A stretch of 64,000 nt of DNA from Escherichia coli (lineage in GTDB: Bacteria; Pseudomonadota; Gammaproteobacteria; Enterobacterales; Enterobacteriaceae), in the NCBI RefSeq assembly GCF_030013205.1, contig NZ_CP122648.1; one strand, written 5' to 3'. Under the pieces are notes generated by a model that was not told the DNA's origin, made no database searches, and saw only the letters and a list, made by a program, of their open reading frames with translations. Shown piece by piece: positions 8,428 to 28,172 of the stretch; position 1 is the first letter of the stretch, and each line of letters opens with the position of its first letter. The translations under genes were made by a program, and so were the position numbers.

Positions 8428-9672
8428 ATGGCAACACTAACCACCACCCAAACGTCACCGTCGCTGCTTGGCGGCGTGGTGATCATCGGCGGTACCATTA
8501 TTGGCGCAGGGATGTTTTCTCTGCCTGTGGTCATGTCCGGGGCGTGGTTCTTCTGGTCAATGGCGGCGCTGATCTTTACCTGGTTCTGTATGCTGCATTC
8601 CGGCTTGATGATTCTGGAAGCTAACCTGAATTATCGAATCGGTTCTAGCTTTGACACCATCACCAAAGATTTGCTGGGCAAAGGCTGGAACGTAGTCAAC
8701 GGCATTTCCATTGCCTTTGTGCTCTATATCCTGACTTACGCCTATATTTCTGCCAGCGGTTCGATTCTGCATCACACCTTCGCGGAGATGTCGCTGAACG
8801 TCCCTGCACGGGCAGCTGGATTTGGTTTTGCACTACTGGTGGCGTTTGTGGTGTGGTTGAGCACCAAAGCGGTCAGCCGGATGACGGCGATTGTGCTGGG
8901 GGCGAAAGTCATTACGTTTTTCCTCACCTTCGGTAGCCTGCTGGGACATGTGCAGCCTGCGACATTGTTCAACGTCGCCGAAAGCAATGCGTCTTATGCA
9001 CCGTATCTGCTGATGACGCTGCCATTCTGTCTGGCATCGTTTGGTTATCACGGTAACGTGCCGAGCCTGATGAAGTATTACGGCAAAGATCCGAAAACCA
9101 TCGTGAAATGCCTGGTGTACGGTACGCTGATGGCGCTGGCGCTGTATACCATCTGGTTGCTGGCGACGATGGGCAACATCCCTCGTCCGGAGTTTATCGG
9201 CATCGCCGAGAAGGGCGGTAATATTGATGTGCTGGTACAGGCATTAAGCGGCGTGCTGAACAGCCGTAGCCTGGACCTTCTGCTGGTCGTGTTCTCAAAC
9301 TTTGCGGTAGCAAGTTCGTTCCTCGGCGTAACGCTGGGTTTGTTTGACTATCTGGCAGATCTGTTTGGTTTTGACGACTCTGCCCTGGGCCGCTTTAAAA
9401 CGGCGTTGCTGACCTTTGCCCCGCCTGTTGTGGGTGGTCTGCTATTTCCGAACGGATTCCTGTATTCCATTGGTTATGCTGGCTTAGCAGCTACTATCTG
9501 GGCAGCAATTGTACCGGCGCTGTTGGCCCGCGCATCGCGTAAACGCTTTGGCAGCCCGAAATTCCGCGTCTGGGGCGGCAAGCCGATGATTGCGCTGATT
9601 CTGGTATTTGGCGTCGGCAACGCACTGGTGCATATTTTATCGAGCTTTAATTTGCTGCCGGTGTATCAGTAA
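8428..9672 (+). CDS. mtr: tryptophan-specific permease Mtr (414 aa)
   Basis: ORF track; HAAAP-family transporter translation. Confidence 0.95.
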
Positions 9673-9680
9673 TCAGCGGT

Positions 9681-11021
<1,341 letters not shown>

Positions 11022-11069
11022 GTAGGACAGCGTTGCCATCTCGGATAAGGCTTCCTACGTTAAAACACA

Positions 11070-12077
11070 CTACCCCAATAATTCTTCCTTCACATCCATC
11101 ACCAGCTCAAACGAATGCAGGCGCGCCTGGTGATCGAAAATCTGCCCGTTAACCATAATCTCATCGGCGTCGGTTTCGCGCAGGATCGACTGCAAGCCGT
11201 GACGCACTTTCGCTTTATCACCCACCAGCGACATACTCAGCGCCTGCTGCACGCCATACTGCTCGGACGGTGACCAGAACTGATCCATATTTTGAATCGG
11301 CGGCGGCAGTTGCCCGGTTTCGCCACGGCGCAGCTTCACAAAGGCTTGCTGCATTGAGGTAAAGAGAAATTCAGCGTCGCGGTTGCTGTCGGCGGCGATA
11401 ATATTGATGCACACCATCGCATACGGTTTTTCCAGCCGTGCCGACGGTTTGAAGTTGCTGCGATAAAGATGCAGCGCCTGGAACAACATATCCGGCGCGA
11501 AGTGTGAGGCAAACGCAAACGGCAGACCAAGCTGCGCCGCCAATTGCGCGCTGTAAAGGCTGGAGCCTAACAACCACACGGGGATTTTCTCGCCATAGCC
11601 TGGTACCGGGCGCACATGCGGATTGGGATCGCGGGCGTCAAACCAGTCCACCAGCTCCGCGACATCGCGGGGAAAATTATCAATATCGCCGCTCATATGA
11701 CGACGTAGAGCCATCATGGTTCGCTGGTCACTACCCGGAGCACGACCCAGCCCCAAATCGATTCGCCCCGGATAGAGCGTATTAAGCGTGCCGAACTGTT
11801 CGGCGATCACCAATGGTGAGTGATTAGGCAACATCACGCCGCCAGACCCCAGATGCAGCGTAGTGGTATTCGCCGCCAGATAGCCAATCAAAACTGATGT
11901 TGCAGCACTGGCAATGCCGGTCATATTGTGGTGTTCCGCCAGCCAGTAGCGATGATAGCCGCGCTTTTCAGCCAGACGGGCGAGGTCGAGAGAGTGGGAG
12001 AACGCTTCTCGCGCTGAAGAACCTTCGGGAATGGGGGCCAGATCGAGTAGCGAAAACGCAATGGTTTTATCAGTCAT
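11070..12077 (-). CDS. yhbW: luciferase-like monooxygenase family protein (335 aa)
   Basis: ORF track translation. Confidence 0.9.
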
Positions 12078-12157
12078 AACAGCTCACTTTGTTACCGATT
12101 AATCTTTAATACTGCATTAAAGAGTAGTTAAAGTTGTTAACAAAGTGAGCTATTTAC

Positions 12158-13036
12158 TTACGCTTGCAGCTCCAGCCCGGCCAGCCGACGCCAGTAGCCG
12201 TTACAATCGCTGTTTGCCGTCAACGGCAGTGGCGCAGCGCCATTTTCATTGGCGCGGAAGGCGTCGAGTATCGCGAAAGTGTCAGTACCCTGCGGTGACA
12301 GGCGGACCACATCAACCAGCCCCTGCATGGATGCCAGCTCGTTACCGAGGTTGTAAACGTAGCCGCTCATGGTCTGAATGCCGTTGAGTACAAACACTTG
12401 TTGGTTTTCCTGCGACAGAACGTTGCGCCCGTTCGGATACTTAATGCAGCAGGTTTCGCACTCATCTTTCGGGCGGTCTTCCGAACGCGCGGTAAAGCAG
12501 CGGGCGGAGTAGGCCAGCGGCAGATGACCGTAGCTCAAGACTTCCACTTCAAACTGGTTGCGAATGCCCAGCTCATCGCACTGATTAAGCAGATTCACCA
12601 GCCAGTCGCGGGATAGCTCCACCGGCATACACCAGCGCATCATGCCCTGTTTGAGCAATATTTTCAGTGTCACCGCGTTGTAGCAGTTCAGCGCGTGCCC
12701 GGCGACGAACGGCAGTTTGCGTTCAGCGCACATATTCACCACGCCGAGATCGCTGGCTTCAATCAGAAACTCACCGTTCTCAACATAGCGTTTCAGTTCG
12801 CCCAGTTCGGAGGATGCCTGCACCAGCGCCAGCGTGGAGAGCACAATCTGCTTACCACTTCCGGCGAGTGATTTTGCCATCTCCAGCCAGTCGCCAACTT
12901 TGGTTGCCCGGCGCTTGCTGCATACCGCTTCACCAAGATAAATCACGTCGGCGCTGCTGGCGGCGGCCTGCTGATAAAATTCTTCCAGCGTCTCTTTTGG
13001 CCAGTACCACAGCACTGGCCCTAAGGAATATTTCAT
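12158..13036 (-). CDS. ubiV: U32-family peptidase-like protein, O2-independent ubiquinone biosynthesis (292 aa)
   Basis: ORF track 12158..13054; likely start at MKYSLGPVLWYW. Confidence 0.85.
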   Translation of the reverse strand: MKYSLGPVLWYWPKETLEEFYQQAAASSADVIYLGEAVCSKRRATKVGDWLEMAKSLAGSGKQIVLSTLALVQASSELGELKRYVENGEFLIEASDLGVVNMCAERKLPFVAGHALNCYNAVTLKILLKQGMMRWCMPVELSRDWLVNLLNQCDELGIRNQFEVEVLSYGHLPLAYSARCFTARSEDRPKDECETCCIKYPNGRNVLSQENQQVFVLNGIQTMSGYVYNLGNELASMQGLVDVVRLSPQGTDTFAILDAFRANENGAAPLPLTANSDCNGYWRRLAGLELQA

Positions 13037-13044
13037 TGCTTTTC

Positions 13045-14040
13045 TCACTGCCATTTACGGTGATACGCGCCAAGGGTGGTCTGCGTGCCTTCGGACATCG
13101 ACCCGAGCGTCTCCATCCACGCGCTTTGCGGTATGAAGTTTTGCGGATCGGCCTTACAACGGTCGATAGCCTGACGCCAGACTTTCGCCACCTGGCTGAC
13201 ATACGCCGGGCTACGCTGGCGGCCTTCAATTTTCACCGAAGCAATATTCGCTGCCATTAACTCCGGCAGCAGTTCCAGGGTATTGAGACTGGTGGGTTCT
13301 TCCAGCGCGTGATAGCGCTCGCCGTCCACCAGATAACGCCCTTTACACAGCGTCGGATAACCTGCGTTTTCGCCATCCTGATAACGGTCGATCAGCACTT
13401 CGTTCAGGCGGGATTCCAGCCCCTGCGGCGTTTGTTGCCAGCGCACGAAACGGGCCGGAGAACACGCACCCACAGTGTTGGGCGACTCACCCGTCAGATA
13501 CGACGACAGATAGCAACGCCCTTCCGACATAATGCACAGGCTGCCGAAAGCAAACACTTCCAGCGGGACAGGTGTGACCCGAGCCAGTTGTTTCACCTGA
13601 TGAATCGACAACACGCGCGGCAGCACCACGCGTGCAACGTCAAAATGGCGATGATAAAAGTTAATCGCCTCTTCATTGGTCGCCGAAGCCTGCACCGATA
13701 CGTGACGTTCAATATGCGGGTAACGCTCGGCGGCGTACTCCAGCATGGCGAGGTCGGCGAGGATCAGCGCGTCGGCACCCAGCTGCGCCGCCATATCCAC
13801 GGCGCGCTGCCAACGGGCGTAACCGTCCGGATGCGCAAAAGTGTTAATCGCGATGTGAAGTTTGCGGCGATGTTGATGGACAAAACTCACCGCTTCCTGC
13901 AATTTTTTCTCGGTAAAGTTAAGGCCGGCGAAGTGACGGGCATTAGTATCATCTTTTAGCCCGATATAAACAGCATCTGCGCCGTTTTCGATGGCCGCCT
14001 TAAGCGCCGGGAGATTTCCGGCAGGGCAGAGCAGCTCCAT
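13045..14040 (-). CDS. ubiU: U32-family protein, O2-independent ubiquinone biosynthesis (331 aa)
   Basis: ORF track 13045..14067; likely start at MELLCPAGNL. Confidence 0.85.
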   Translation of the reverse strand: MELLCPAGNLPALKAAIENGADAVYIGLKDDTNARHFAGLNFTEKKLQEAVSFVHQHRRKLHIAINTFAHPDGYARWQRAVDMAAQLGADALILADLAMLEYAAERYPHIERHVSVQASATNEEAINFYHRHFDVARVVLPRVLSIHQVKQLARVTPVPLEVFAFGSLCIMSEGRCYLSSYLTGESPNTVGACSPARFVRWQQTPQGLESRLNEVLIDRYQDGENAGYPTLCKGRYLVDGERYHALEEPTSLNTLELLPELMAANIASVKIEGRQRSPAYVSQVAKVWRQAIDRCKADPQNFIPQSAWMETLGSMSEGTQTTLGAYHRKWQ

Positions 14041-14248
14041 AATTTTTCCTGAAGGTTGCGCTATCAAAGCGCAAAAATGTTAACGAACTGGGATTTTAGT
14101 TAACCTTGCTGCGACAATTTTTGATTTAAGGCAGTTAAAGTTGTATTGGTGGTAGCAGCAATTTCATATGGAATTGTTGATTTATACCGCTATGTTATTT
14201 TTCTGATATGGCAAAATAGGATGATTGTTGAAACAGGGAGTAAAACTC

Positions 14249-14773
14249 GTGTTGGATAAACTGCGTTCCCGTATTGTGCATTTGGGGCCATCTCTGTTGA
14301 GTGTACCGGTAAAACTGACGCCATTTGCGCTAAAACGCCAGGTTCTTGAGCAGGTCCTAAGCTGGCAATTCCGTCAGGCGCTGAATGATGGCGAGCTGGA
14401 GTTTCTTGAAGGCCGCTGGTTAAGTATTCATGTGCGTGATATTGACCTGCAATGGTTTACCTCGGTGGTGAATGGCAAACTGGTCGTTAGCCAGAACGCG
14501 CAAGCTGATGTGAGTTTTAGTGCCGACGCCAGCGATCTGCTGATGATTGCGGCGCGTAAACAAGATCCGGATACGCTCTTCTTCCAGCGTCGGCTGGTAA
14601 TTGAAGGCGATACGGAGCTGGGGCTGTATGTGAAAAACCTGATGGACGCCATTGAACTGGAGCAAATGCCGAAAGCCTTACGCATGATGCTGCTGCAACT
14701 GGCGGATTTTGTTGAGGCGGGAATGAAAACCGCGCCTGAAACCAAACAGACATCGGTAGGTGAACCATGCTAA
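14249..14773 (+). CDS. ubiT: SCP2-domain lipid-binding protein (174 aa, GTG start)
   Basis: ORF track 14225..14773; GTG at 14249 preceded by gggag SD. Confidence 0.8.
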   Translation: MLDKLRSRIVHLGPSLLSVPVKLTPFALKRQVLEQVLSWQFRQALNDGELEFLEGRWLSIHVRDIDLQWFTSVVNGKLVVSQNAQADVSFSADASDLLMIAARKQDPDTLFFQRRLVIEGDTELGLYVKNLMDAIELEQMPKALRMMLLQLADFVEAGMKTAPETKQTSVGEPC

Positions 14774-15270
14774 TTCGAGTAGAAATTCCCATTGATGCGC
14801 CGGGTATTGATGCCCTGCTGCGTCGTTCATTCGAAAGTGATGCGGAAGCGAAGCTGGTTCACGATCTGCGTGAAGATGGCTTTCTGACGTTGGGGCTGGT
14901 GGCGACAGATGACGAAGGTCAGGTCATTGGCTATGTGGCATTTAGTCCGGTTGATGTGCAGGGCGAAGACCTGCAATGGGTCGGCATGGCACCGTTGGCG
15001 GTTGATGAAAAATACCGTGGACAGGGGCTGGCACGCCAACTGGTCTATGAAGGACTCGATTCGCTTAATGAGTTCGGCTATGCCGCAGTGGTGACGCTGG
15101 GCGATCCGGCGCTGTACAGTCGTTTCGGCTTTGAGCTGGCGGCGCATCACGATCTGCGTTGCCGCTGGCCGGGCACCGAAAGCGCCTTCCAGGTACATCG
15201 TTTAGCGGATGACGCGCTGAACGGCGTAACCGGTCTGGTTGAGTATCACGAGCATTTCAATCGCTTTTAA
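14767..15270 (+). CDS. yhbS: GNAT-family N-acetyltransferase (167 aa)
   Basis: ORF track; overlaps ubiT stop. Confidence 0.9.
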
Positions 15271-15559
15271 TCTCCGGGGTTTGCAGGCTGCTCAACAGCT
15301 CTGCAAACCCTGCGCCTTCCGCTACCAGACGCTCTTTTTGCCGTTTGGTCAGTTGCTTAACGCGATATTCCGCCCGTAGTGCCAGCGAACGATCGCCCAC
15401 TGGCGCGGAAAACGCCAGCGTTAGTTCTCCTTTCCCGCGCAGTGCTTTCGCCCCTTTGCCGCTTTGGTGCTGCTGATAGCGGCGTTCGACATCTGTGGTG
15501 ATCCCGGTATAAAGCTTATTGTCGGCGGTACGGATCAAGTAAAGAAACCAGGGTGTCAT
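15257..15559 (-). CDS. yhbQ: GIY-YIG nuclease superfamily protein (100 aa)
   Basis: ORF track; GIY...YIG motif (LYTGITTD). Confidence 0.9.
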
Positions 15560-15609
15560 CGTCTGCGTCGCATGTTAAGGTCAGGCCCACAGTATAAAAG
15601 AGAACAGCA

Positions 15610-16032
15610 ATGGAAACACTCACCGCCATCAGCCGTTGGCTGGCAAAACAACATGTTGTCACCTGGTGTGTGCAGCAGGAAGGGGAACTCTGGTGCGCTA
15701 ATGCCTTTTATCTTTTTGATGCGCAGAAAGTCGCCTTCTACATTTTGACGGAAGAAAAAACGCGCCACGCGCAGATGAGTGGGCCGCAGGCGGCAGTTGC
15801 CGGAACGGTAAACGGTCAGCCGAAAACGGTAGCGTTAATTCGCGGCGTGCAATTTAAAGGCGAGATCCGCAGGCTTGAAGGTGAGGAAAGCGACCTCGCA
15901 CGTCACGCGTACAATCGTCGCTTTCCGGTTGCCAGAATGCTGTCGGCCCCGGTGTGGGAAATCCGGCTTGATGAAATCAAATTCACCGACAACACGCTGG
16001 GCTTTGGTAAAAAAATGATCTGGCTACGTAAC

Positions 16033-16053
<21 letters not shown>
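15610..16053 (+). CDS. yhbP: pyridoxamine 5'-phosphate oxidase-like protein (147 aa)
   Basis: ORF track. Confidence 0.9.
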
Positions 16054-16563
<510 letters not shown>

Positions 16564-27017: not shown

Positions 27018-28172
27018 TTATGCCTGCCACGGATGAATGATTACGCCTTGCACCACGCGGTTAACGGTGCCGCTGGCTGATGGGGTATCCGGCGTATTGC
27101 CCATGTGCAGCGACTGCATAAGTGCAAACGTCTGGGCGTACATCAGGAAGCAAAATGCCTGCTCAACGTCGATAAAGTGACGGGACGGCGGCAGGATAAT
27201 ATGTGGACCGGCAGCAACGATGTCTGTGCTTTCCGCGGCGATGGCGATTACGCGCATTGCCTGGTTATCGCGGCGAAGTTCAGCCAGTAGATCAAGATCA
27301 TACTGACGGGTGTAAGGGTGGCTGGAGACAAATACCACCACCAGCGTTTCGTTATCGACCAGCGATTTCGGGCCATGACGGAATCCGGTCGGGGAATCAT
27401 AAAAGGCCGCCAGTTTACCCGCCGTCAGTTCCAGTACTTTCAGCGCCGACTCGCGTGCTGCGCCCTGTAAGCCACCGCTGCCGAGATAAACGATCCGTTT
27501 CCACGGTGCGTAACCAAACACACCTTCGCTGAAATCGCCCAGTGAGGTCAGGATCGCCTGGCAACGATCCGCCACGTCGCGGAAGCTCTGGCTGTTGATC
27601 GTCTCAGGTGCGAAAACCGCGAGGCAGCTGGCCATCATGGTGGTAATGCTGCTGGTCATCGCAAAGCCGCGATCGTGCGTTTCTGCGGGCATCAGTAGGG
27701 CAAACGCGTTGTCGCTGTTGATCGCGTTTTGGTAAAGAGCGCCCGCTTCGTTGCAGGTGATCGGCAGGTGATAGCACTCGGGTACAAATTGATTTGCCAG
27801 TTCCACGGCGGCGACGCTTTCCGGGCTGTTGCCGGATCGACCGAAGGAGATCAACAGCAGTGGATGAGTTGGATTCAGGTAGTCCATCGGATTGGTGACC
27901 AGATCGGTGGTCGGTACGGCGCTGAAGTTTTTACCGGTATGGCTGGCGAGCCACGGCGCGATAATGTCACCGATAAATGCCGAGGTTCCGGCTCCGGTCA
28001 GGATTACCCGCAGATTCTCTTTGCGCAGTAACGGTTCAAGGAAGTTATTGAGCGCGGAACGTAGTGCGTCGATGTTGGTGAGTGAACGGATCCATGCGCG
28101 AGGCTGATGGCGGATCTCTTCTTCAGTCCATGTACCGGTTGCGGCAGCAGCAGGGGGGTAATTTTCTGGCAT
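27018..28172 (-). CDS. agaS: SIS-domain putative galactosamine-6-phosphate deaminase/isomerase (384 aa)
   Basis: ORF track. Confidence 0.9.
   Translation of the reverse strand: MPENYPPAAAATGTWTEEEIRHQPRAWIRSLTNIDALRSALNNFLEPLLRKENLRVILTGAGTSAFIGDIIAPWLASHTGKNFSAVPTTDLVTNPMDYLNPTHPLLLISFGRSGNSPESVAAVELANQFVPECYHLPITCNEAGALYQNAINSDNAFALLMPAETHDRGFAMTSSITTMMASCLAVFAPETINSQSFRDVADRCQAILTSLGDFSEGVFGYAPWKRIVYLGSGGLQGAARESALKVLELTAGKLAAFYDSPTGFRHGPKSLVDNETLVVVFVSSHPYTRQYDLDLLAELRRDNQAMRVIAIAAESTDIVAAGPHIILPPSRHFIDVEQAFCFLMYAQTFALMQSLHMGNTPDTPSASGTVNRVVQGVIIHPWQA

Follow-up and report, generated by a model that had tools for sequence, protein, structure and literature searches.

We hold with high confidence that the DNA considered here, part of a 64-kb stretch analysed as a whole (the window), is an ordinary and intact copy of the already well-characterised ubiT / ubiU-ubiV locus of Escherichia coli for O2-independent ubiquinone synthesis. 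The locus is known from K-12 (Pelosi et al., 2019, PMC6747719; Arias-Cartin, 2023, PMC10470549; Kazemzadeh Ferizhendi, 2024, PMC10990095); across Enterobacterales and Vibrionaceae the non-consensus halves of its two Fnr sites are invariant.

Identity and intactness of the locus

The genes of the locus are as follows.

12158..13036, minus strand: ubiV (yhbV), 292 aa, U32-family [4Fe-4S] protein and partner of UbiU; RefSeq CDS with the same coordinates in an identical record
13045..14040, minus strand: ubiU (yhbU), 331 aa, U32-family [4Fe-4S] subunit of the O2-independent hydroxylase; ATG at 14040
14249..14773, plus strand: ubiT (yhbT), 174 aa, SCP2 lipid-binding accessory factor with a GTG start; RefSeq CDS
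14767..15270, plus strand: yhbS (hqbA), GNAT acetyltransferase, from the annotation

Gene identity is settled by the curated models together with annotated genomes of exactly the same sequence. Over 12000..15000 the window is 100% identical to the chromosome of E. coli strain K_EC180, at least 12 complete genomes, mostly of pig isolates, are 100% identical over the same interval, and the locus is carried by 5424 of the 5426 complete E. coli genomes. UbiU matches NCBIfam NF047963 (quinone_UbiU) at 559.8 bits (cut-off 440) over profile positions 1-331 of 331, and Pfam PF01136 at 227.5 bits; UbiV matches NF047965 (quinone_UbiV) at 363 bits (cut-off 275), NF011991 at 439.7 bits and likewise PF01136; and UbiT matches NF047962 (SCP2_dom_UbiT) at 153.6 bits (cut-off 46.9) and Pfam PF02036 (SCP2) at 71.4 bits. 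An earlier note on this DNA, made from the sequence, had placed ubiT, ubiU and ubiV here and called all three intact, and this stands, as the genes have zero internal stops, are of the same lengths as in K-12 and match their equivalog HMMs end to end. The same models and the comparison with K-12 bear out its gene identities and the divergent arrangement of ubiT and ubiU; ubiV lies directly downstream of ubiU, the stop of which is 8 nt ahead of the ubiV ATG. The iron-sulfur ligand cysteines listed for these proteins (PMC6747719) are all kept: UbiU has cysteines at 5, 169, 176, 193, 232 and 295, with C169, C176, C193 and C232 (CX6CX16CX38C) as the ligands, and the 292-aa UbiV has all four of its own, C39, C180, C193 and C197 (CXnCX12CX3C).

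The outer limits given in the earlier note, 12158 and 14773, are exact, but the inner gene limits were off, the longest open reading frames having been taken. The RefSeq and K-12 starts are the ATG at 13036 rather than 13054 for ubiV, the ATG at 14040 rather than the TTG at 14067 for ubiU, and the GTG at 14249 rather than the TTG at 14225 for ubiT, and the NCBIfam profiles begin at these shorter gene starts. The long form of ubiT is ruled out because the published transcription start of ubiTp2 (~14223/14224) sits at the TTG. With the inner starts corrected, the intergenic region runs from 14041 to 14248 (208 bp), in place of the 14068..14225 (~160 bp) put forward as the promoter region. On the other side of ubiT, the yhbS ATG and the ubiT stop overlap by 7 nt, and from this overlap the two genes are probably co-transcribed; in K-12 the expression ratio of yhbS (0.47) follows that of yhbT (0.49) (Myers, 2013, PMC3688515), and yhbS is reported as dispensable for ubiquinone metabolism. 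A search of 9000..16500 against Rfam at the gathering threshold gave no matches.

Promoter elements and published evidence for FNR control

The elements of the intergenic region are as follows, where the Fnr sites are given without a strand.

14056..14074, minus strand: small hairpin in the ubiUV 5' UTR, with a 7-bp stem and a 5-nt loop
14093..14098, minus strand: ubiUVp -10 hexamer TAAAAT, transcription start ~14085/14084 from the published F1-to-start distance
14121..14134: Fnr site F1, TTGATTTAAGGCAG (CTGCCTTAAATCAA in the ubiU sense), an exact match to the published F1, which activates ubiUVp
14144..14149, plus strand: candidate -10 of ubiTp1, TATTGG, an Fnr-independent promoter with its start at ~14157/14158 from published distances
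14177..14190: Fnr site F2, TTGATTTATACCGC, an exact match to the published F2, which activates ubiTp2
14209..14217, plus strand: ubiTp2 extended -10, TGGCAAAAT, transcription start ~14223/14224 from the published distance
14235..14240, plus strand: ubiT Shine-Dalgarno sequence AGGGAG, 8 nt ahead of the GTG, read from the sequence

The start sites are derived from distances quoted in the published work and carry a 1-nt ambiguity, which places the centre of F1 at about -42.5/-43.5 relative to the ubiUVp start, with TAAAAT as the -10, and that of F2 at about -39.5/-40.5 relative to the ubiTp2 start, with TGGCAAAAT as the extended -10. TATTGG is a candidate for the -10 of ubiTp1, for which the TTGATT of F1, 17 nt upstream, would be the candidate -35.

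Anaerobic control of the FNR type had been expected for this region in the earlier note, and rightly so, in that both F1 and F2, the Fnr sites validated by experiment in K-12 (Arias-Cartin, 2023, PMC10470549), occur here base for base. Mutation of the TTGAT half of F1 abolished anaerobic UbiV production in K-12, and mutation or deletion of F2 led to loss of the anaerobic induction of UbiT with its basal level kept (PMC10470549). The five-base mutation of each site, TTGAT to GATGA in F1 and to CATGA in F2, was confined to the TTGAT half and did away with the response to FNR at the cognate promoter alone, in work with reporter fusions and chromosomal site mutants (PMC10470549). An FNR ChIP-seq peak lies at yhbT/yhbU in K-12 and yhbUV is classed as directly FNR-activated, with ratios of 0.07 for yhbU, 0.115 for yhbV and 0.49 for yhbT and, in the same table, 0.03 for nirB (Myers, 2013, PMC3688515). 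Among divergent ubiT/ubiUV loci, a published survey predicted an FNR site in 96% (PMC11707229). We accept FNR control because of the ChIP-seq, the fnr-dependent expression and the site mutagenesis in K-12, and we infer that the present strain would behave like K-12 in FNR occupancy, regulation and enzymology. The earlier note had named the lack of both an FNR-type site and anaerobic induction as what would speak against such control; F1 and F2 are present, and induction has been published for K-12.

Detection of the Fnr sites by sequence scan

F1 and F2 each pair a perfect TTGAT half with a non-consensus one, matching 7 of 10 consensus positions, and because of the latter half they are missed by eye, by a consensus scan and by the published FNR weight matrix. 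The earlier note was correct that the region lacks a convincing TTGAT-N4-ATCAA palindrome, as its best matches have 3 mismatches in 10. The position-weight-matrix scan that it proposed would not have decided the matter: the best site here by the published FNR matrix has an ln(p) of -8.72, weaker than the matrix's own genome-wide prediction threshold of -10.75. A consensus scan allowing up to three mismatches was rejected as a site finder, with 312 matches across the 64-kb window against 257 expected by chance, a difference that does not discriminate. Half-site counting over the 208 bp gave 3 where 0.83 would be expected, a marginal excess (P ~0.05) that is too weak as standalone evidence, and the mismatch count of the best site in 37 species compared with shuffles was not significant (9 against 7.1 at two or fewer mismatches). 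A generic scan of 13900..14400 for sigma-70 promoters and terminators returned one weak match over the ubiU start and missed all of the real promoters, as is to be expected where promoters are activator-dependent and have no -35. Neither F1 nor F2 is distinguishable from background by the sequence of this region alone. That experimentally proven FNR sites go uncalled by consensus and matrix scans calls for caution in taking 'no motif found' as a refutation.

Conservation of the sites across species

A cross-species signal emerged only on tracking the actual 14-mer, not its distance from the consensus. The F1 motif TTGAT-N4-GGCAG occurs exactly, and always in one orientation, in the compact divergent regions of 30 of the 37 other species compared, where 0.014 would be expected, although many of these species are related and the counts overstate independence. 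In 30 of the 31 species' regions a TANNNT hexamer, corresponding to the ubiUV -10, is at a distance of exactly 22 nt from F1, and a TTGAY-N9 site (F2) followed by a -10 block is found in 28 of 38 regions, 27 of these 28 having an 18-nt gap. The ubiTp2 extended -10 has a counterpart, TGnCAnAAT, in 29 of 38 regions. Two further blocks are conserved, gCGTATTGrT in the ubiTp1 -10 area in Enterobacterales and cagGGAGTaaag in the ubiT Shine-Dalgarno area in Enterobacteriaceae. By UbiU identity, the F1 motif is present at 16/17 loci at 90% or more, 11/12 at 80-90% and 15/22 at 70-80%, and it spans Enterobacterales, Vibrionaceae and Moritella with flanks that are largely unalignable. In Vibrionaceae it lies 66-79 nt from ubiU even where ubiT is ~2.4 kb off or absent from the stretch compared, and this spacing led us to reject the notion that the distance of F1 is steadier to ubiT than to ubiU. 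At UbiU identities under 70%, 16 of 47 loci have an FNR box with at most one mismatch 52-123 nt upstream of ubiU, compared with 0.05 in shuffles, and the intermediates CTGAT and CTGCT are seen at the F1 position in distant taxa.

These data bear on whether F1 and F2 might be chance TTGAT half-sites, with anaerobic induction arising indirectly through a regulator downstream of FNR. Such a reading could draw on the background-like behaviour of both sites in consensus scans, their place under the matrix threshold and the half-site P value, yet it has to contend with the fixed -10 spacing across genera, the excess of the exact motif and the near-canonical boxes upstream of ubiU in distant taxa, all set out above, as well as with the FNR ChIP-seq peak over the intergenic region and the loss of the cognate promoter's FNR response on site mutation. 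The published mutagenesis and ChIP effectively refute it, and we give it almost no weight.

A possible role for the non-consensus halves

Direct control by FNR through F1 and F2 remains our main explanation, and the conservation of the halves that depart from the consensus might supplement it without excluding it. We consider, as an unlikely possibility, that GGCAG in F1 and RCCGC in F2 serve as specific recognition elements of their own, bound by a second protein that acts with FNR or imposing an unusual asymmetric mode of FNR binding that would set the O2 threshold; in either case the locus would not be of the plain FNR class II. What speaks for this is that the three non-consensus positions of GGCAG are invariant at all 42 UbiU loci that have the motif, from Enterobacterales to Vibrionaceae and Moritella, a pattern in which selection for mere weakness would not fix one particular sequence. 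Overlap with ubiTp1 cannot explain it, as the motif persists in those Vibrionaceae where ubiT is distant, and the published site mutations left GGCAG and ACCGC unaltered. Against this, GGCAG and ACCGC keep the central C/G of the ATCAA half-site and so could well make the usual kind of weak contact with FNR, the intermediates in distant taxa suggest the simple decay of a canonical box, relatedness among the species inflates the apparent independence of the GGCAG counts, and the published reporter assays (PMC10470549) found FNR alone to be enough for activation. GGCAG and its flanks, compared by eye with the sigma-54, MarA/SoxS, IHF, ArcA and NarL consensus sequences, gave no convincing match. 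It is accordingly with considerable doubt that we put forward that the halves may have been held invariant since before the split of Enterobacterales and Vibrionaceae because they are specifically read, by a co-factor or by an asymmetric complex of FNR and RNA polymerase. If this were true, the halves would tune the induction of ubiUV and ubiT to a particular O2 threshold, and promoters of this kind would form a conserved sub-class of their own among those that depend on FNR; the deep conservation of the halves could in that sense be relevant to the setting of different O2 thresholds at FNR-dependent promoters.

Probable working of the locus

As in K-12, the locus would be expressed from two divergent operons. 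Active (anaerobic) FNR bound at F1, centred near -42.5, would activate ubiUVp in the class II manner, FNR at F2 (near -40) would activate ubiTp2, and the second promoter upstream, ubiTp1, would provide basal, FNR-independent expression of ubiT in air. UbiU and UbiV would form a heterodimer with one [4Fe-4S] cluster per subunit, and this would hydroxylate the ring three times in ubiquinone biosynthesis without O2; the oxygen would be donated by prephenate (PMC10990095). From the protein identity to K-12 of more than 99%, we infer that both the heterodimer and the prephenate-dependent hydroxylation, known from the biochemistry and genetics of K-12, would apply here. UbiT, the accessory factor with the SCP2 lipid-binding domain, would be needed also at the switch from anaerobic to aerobic conditions, its role in the O2 shift being that described for K-12 (PMC10470549).

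Comparison with known systems

The locus has the same gene order, orientation, lengths and starts (ATG, ATG, GTG) as ubiT (b3157) and ubiU (b3158) - ubiV (b3159) of K-12 MG1655. All iron-sulfur cysteine ligands and the overlap with yhbS are shared, the yhbS protein is identical, and 207 of the 208 intergenic positions are the same, those of F1, F2 and the two -10 elements among them. The differences are conservative substitutions in UbiV (T26A and M256I here), UbiU (I190V and V303I) and UbiT (D46N), a synonymous divergence of 0.8-2.6% across the three ubi genes, and a sole intergenic change, A to G at 14069, in the ubiUV leader and outside all promoter elements. In addition, a copy of IS621 that is absent from K-12 lies between mtr and yhbW, two genes away. 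Nothing among these differences suggests a functional change.

The five amino-acid differences and the one in the leader could nevertheless be taken to mean that the locus looks intact but is impaired in this strain, the more so as G14069 (A in K-12) makes perfect the stem of the leader hairpin and strengthens this structure, which adjoins the ribosome-binding site, by 2.4 kcal/mol. The predicted folds (-9.7 kcal/mol, compared with -7.3 in K-12) are not significant against shuffles (z-scores -1.5 and -0.7), and on that ground we rejected the hairpin and the 14069 polymorphism as a meaningful feature. The substitutions leave the iron-sulfur ligands untouched, the HMM scores are far over their cut-offs, the full 12000..15000 sequence recurs unchanged in the genomes noted above, and the exact 208-bp intergenic allele is found also in unrelated human and frog isolates. 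Impairment is thus very improbable in our view. Of 5424 genomes, 5398 have the intergenic region at 99% identity or more. On the preferred reading, an intact and ordinary locus, this pig-associated lineage would keep both the anaerobic route to ubiquinone and the control of that route intact, like essentially all E. coli.

Compared with class II FNR promoters such as nirB, narG and dmsA (-41.5 in Myers, 2013, PMC3688515), the ubi promoters are alike in having a site ~40-43 nt upstream of the start that replaces the -35, a recognisable -10 and, from K-12 data, anaerobic fnr-dependent activation. They differ from the canonical class II sites in matching only 7 of 10 consensus positions, in falling under the matrix threshold and in having non-consensus halves that are conserved across genera. 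Beyond Enterobacterales and Vibrionaceae, ubiU is preceded by a CRP/FNR-type box in Pseudomonas, Xanthomonadales, Colwellia and Neisseria, often ~60-120 nt from the ATG, in agreement with the published survey (PMC11707229), and many distant taxa have ubiT on the same strand or at another place, whereas it is divergent in E. coli. These distant Pseudomonadota have near-canonical ubiUV boxes, such as TTGATTGCCGTCAA, CTGATCCGGATCAA and TTAATATACATCAA, in which the half nearest ubiU is xTCAA, while the distal half is CTGCC in Enterobacterales and Vibrionaceae.

Gene coordinates and protein identity

Several complete E. coli chromosomes match the stretch from 12000 to 15000 at 100% identity, with NZ_CP062203.1 (strain K_EC180, swine) as the top match. 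Of the 5426 complete genomes of the species, 5424 have the region at ≥95% identity. Since the first 50 kb of the window differ from NZ_CP062203.1 by one base, at 28157, the RefSeq annotation of that record transfers directly.

Genes of the locus (RefSeq annotation)
12158..13036, minus strand: ubiV, 292 aa
13045..14040, minus strand: ubiU, 331 aa
14249..14773, plus strand: ubiT, 174 aa, GTG start
14767..15270, plus strand: yhbS, 7-nt overlap with the ubiT stop

The outer limits in the earlier note, 12158 and 14773, are exact, and its inner limits, taken from the longest ORFs (ubiV to 13054, ubiU from a TTG at 14067, ubiT from a TTG at 14225), are wrong. The shorter starts of all three genes agree with the K-12 and RefSeq annotation, and the NCBIfam profiles start at the first residues of the shorter forms. 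For ubiT, the published ubiTp2 transcription start coincides with the TTG of the long ORF, which favors the GTG, and a good Shine-Dalgarno sequence, AGGGAG, lies 8 nt 5' of that GTG. With the shorter ubiU and ubiT starts, the intergenic region is therefore 14041..14248, or 208 bp, in place of the promoter region of about 160 bp described before.

All three genes are intact, as had been claimed, with K-12 lengths and start codons and zero internal stops. The products exceed the NCBIfam equivalog cut-offs (UbiU, 559.8 bits vs 440, with the full profile covered; UbiV, 363 vs 275; UbiT, 153.6 vs 46.9), and Pfam places Peptidase_U32 in UbiU and UbiV and SCP2 in UbiT. The substitutions relative to K-12 are all conservative (UbiV T26A and M256I; UbiU I190V and V303I; UbiT D46N). 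The [4Fe-4S] ligand cysteines identified by Pelosi et al. (2019; PMC6747719) are present in full in both UbiU (C169, C176, C193, C232) and UbiV (C39, C180, C193, C197).

Fnr sites and promoter geometry

No TTGAT-N4-ATCAA palindrome occurs in the intergenic region, just as the reading by eye had reported; the best matches carry three mismatches, a level reached 312 times in the window vs 257 expected by chance. These two matches are nevertheless the Fnr sites defined in K-12 by Arias-Cartin et al. (2023; PMC10470549), namely F1, TTGATTTAAGGCAG, which precedes the ubiUV start site by 36 nt, and F2, TTGATTTATACCGC, 33 nt upstream of the FNR-dependent promoter ubiTp2 and 19 nt downstream of the Fnr-independent ubiTp1.

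Regulatory elements between ubiU and ubiT (start sites derived from the published site-to-start distances, with a 1-nt ambiguity)
14121..14134: F1, exact match to the published site, single occurrence in the window
14177..14190: F2, exact match to the published site, single occurrence in the window
~14085/14084, minus strand: ubiUVp start, F1 centered at -42.5/-43.5
14093..14098, minus strand: ubiUVp -10, TAAAAT
~14157/14158, plus strand: ubiTp1 start
14209..14217, plus strand: ubiTp2 extended -10, TGGCAAAAT
~14223/14224, plus strand: ubiTp2 start, F2 centered at -39.5/-40.5

The sole difference from K-12 in the 208 bp, at 14069, lies within the ubiUV leader. In K-12, a five-base change in F1 abolishes anaerobic UbiV production, and changes in F2 remove the anaerobic induction of UbiT while the basal level from ubiTp1 is kept (PMC10470549). 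Myers et al. (2013; PMC3688515) found an FNR ChIP-seq peak at yhbT/yhbU (ubiT/ubiU) and listed yhbUV as directly FNR-activated, with expression ratios of 0.07 (yhbU), 0.115 (yhbV), and 0.49 (yhbT). Given the value of 0.03 for nirB in that table, we take the numerator of these ratios to be the fnr mutant and the denominator the wild type. The identity of F1 and F2 with K-12, together with the published mutants, ChIP-seq, and expression, thus supports the FNR-type anaerobic control that had been expected. The matrix scan suggested as a check would not have called the site, since the best site in that peak scores ln(p) -8.72 with the published FNR matrix, which falls short of the genome-wide threshold, -10.75 (PMC3688515).

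A 17-nt gap separates the TTGATT of F1 from TATTGG (14144..14149) downstream. From this spacing, F1 may double as a candidate -35 element of ubiTp1, and FNR bound at F1 would occupy about -30 of that promoter.

Conservation across species

Half-sites in the 208 bp number three vs 0.83 expected (P ~0.05), and because these in-window statistics are weak, ubiU loci were scanned across species, using one genome per species and the UbiU N-terminal coding pattern as the query, which is unbiased as to the sites. The 120 loci gave 102 that encode UbiU, 45 with a divergent ubiT, and 37 with a compact intergenic region; the counts take in close relatives (a second E. coli, E. albertii), so that independence is overstated. 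Mismatch distance from the FNR consensus was uninformative across the 37 regions. The exact motif TTGAT-N4-GGCAG is found in 30 of them vs 0.014 expected from composition, in one orientation throughout, and in 30/31 regions its distance to a ubiU-strand TANNNT hexamer is exactly 22 nt. Vibrionaceae supply 14 more copies, 66-79 nt upstream of ubiU, with ubiT 2.4 kb off or outside the fetched stretch; the motif is therefore part of the ubiU promoter. Its occurrence was tallied by UbiU identity to the window protein (16/17 at ≥90%, 11/12 at 80-90%, 15/22 at 70-80%, and 0/47 at <70%), and 16 of these last 47 loci have a canonical FNR/ANR box (≤1 mismatch) 52-123 nt upstream of ubiU, vs 0.05 in shuffles. 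Read in the ubiU sense, the proximal half is always xTCAA and the distal half is TTGAT, CTGAT, or CTGCT by taxon, and CTGCC in Enterobacterales and Vibrionaceae. For F2 in Enterobacterales, TTGAY-N9 and a downstream TGnCAnAAT occur together in 28/38 regions, separated by 18 nt in 27 of these 28, and the right half of the site is GCCGC or ACCGC in most.

The non-consensus halves, GGCAG in F1 and GCCGC/ACCGC in F2, are as conserved across Enterobacterales as the TTGAT halves; GGCAG is also kept in Vibrionaceae and Moritella, and in taxa farther removed, the boxes at the equivalent place are near-canonical. Published mutagenesis replaced TTGAT by GATGA in F1 and by CATGA in F2 and left these halves unaltered (PMC10470549). 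Since the central C of ATCAA is preserved in both, the simplest reading is an ordinary weak FNR contact. However, the invariance of the three non-consensus positions of GGCAG across ~40 species exceeds what selection for a weak site predicts. That these halves serve a specific second function is a reading we nonetheless regard as improbable.

The intergenic region differs from K-12 at 1/208 nt (0.5%), compared with 23/996 in ubiU, 23/879 in ubiV, and 40/1008 in yhbW, which has diverged furthest among the genes compared, and is ≥99% identical in 5398/5424 E. coli genomes. This low divergence is consistent with dense regulatory constraint.

Leader hairpin and inverted repeat

The change at 14069, A in K-12 to G, makes a 7-bp stem perfect in the 5' UTR of ubiUV (hairpin 14056..14074, minus strand), just upstream of the ribosome-binding site. 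The folding energy is -9.7 vs -7.3 kcal/mol in K-12, and neither allele of this hairpin is significant against shuffles. Among 40 rows sampled from across the ranking, 5 genomes carry the 208-bp allele at 100% identity. Separately, many Enterobacteriaceae carry an inverted repeat, ATTGrT-N3-rCCAAT, ~10 nt to the right of F1 and over the ubiTp1 -10 and start (14145..14162). It is seen in the homologous loci L039 and L008 (Citrobacter), L015, L018, L077, L080, and L086; in Citrobacter sp. FP75 it reads ATTGGTGTCACCAAT, and the E. coli counterpart at 14145..14162 is ATTGGTGGTAGCAGCAAT, with arms 3 bp farther apart. We take the repeat to resemble a PdhR/GntR-type box, as a candidate.

Other features

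Features elsewhere in the window
9740..11019: IS621 copy (IS110 family), ~1280 bp; transposase ORF 9932..10912, plus strand
11070..12077, minus strand: yhbW, same strand as ubiV and 81 nt downstream of it
38896..39671: garL, "frameshifted" pseudogene
43679..44217: yhaB, "frameshifted" pseudogene

Both pseudogene flags come from the RefSeq record identical to the window there. The IS621 copy, absent from K-12 at this spacer, sits where a repeat-like stretch separates the convergent 3' ends of mtr and yhbW, and both of its junctions read CT. A similar left junction is found in at most 403/5426 complete E. coli genomes, an upper bound given the repetitive flank; the records that reach ≥99% identity to it number only 29. 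In IS621, the 5' non-coding end encodes a "bridge" RNA that guides the recombinase, and in this copy that end would presumably lie at ~9740..9931; Rfam at the gathering threshold gave zero matches at this stretch (9000..16500 searched). The ratio for yhbW is 6.78 in the table of Myers et al. (2013; PMC3688515), vs 0.07 for ubiU and 0.115 for ubiV, so its response to fnr loss is opposite to theirs in spite of its proximity to ubiV and their shared strand.

Comparison with the K-12 system

The mechanism is taken from the literature, for proteins >99% identical to those encoded in the window. The hydroxylation steps of ubiquinone synthesis that proceed independently of O2 require the UbiU-UbiV heterodimer, which has two [4Fe-4S] clusters (PMC6747719), and prephenate donates the oxygen (PMC10990095). 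UbiT, an SCP2 accessory factor, is also required when aerobic synthesis begins after an anaerobic-to-aerobic shift (PMC10470549), a role that fits its having both a constitutive and an FNR-dependent promoter. Judged from its sequence, no feature in the window would point away from the K-12 mechanism, and both the locus and its regulation by FNR have been described before. The arrangement of F1 and F2 is the class II FNR architecture, as in Myers et al. (2013; PMC3688515), and our cross-species counts are in line with a published survey in which 96% of divergent ubiT/ubiUV loci had a predicted FNR site (PMC11707229).
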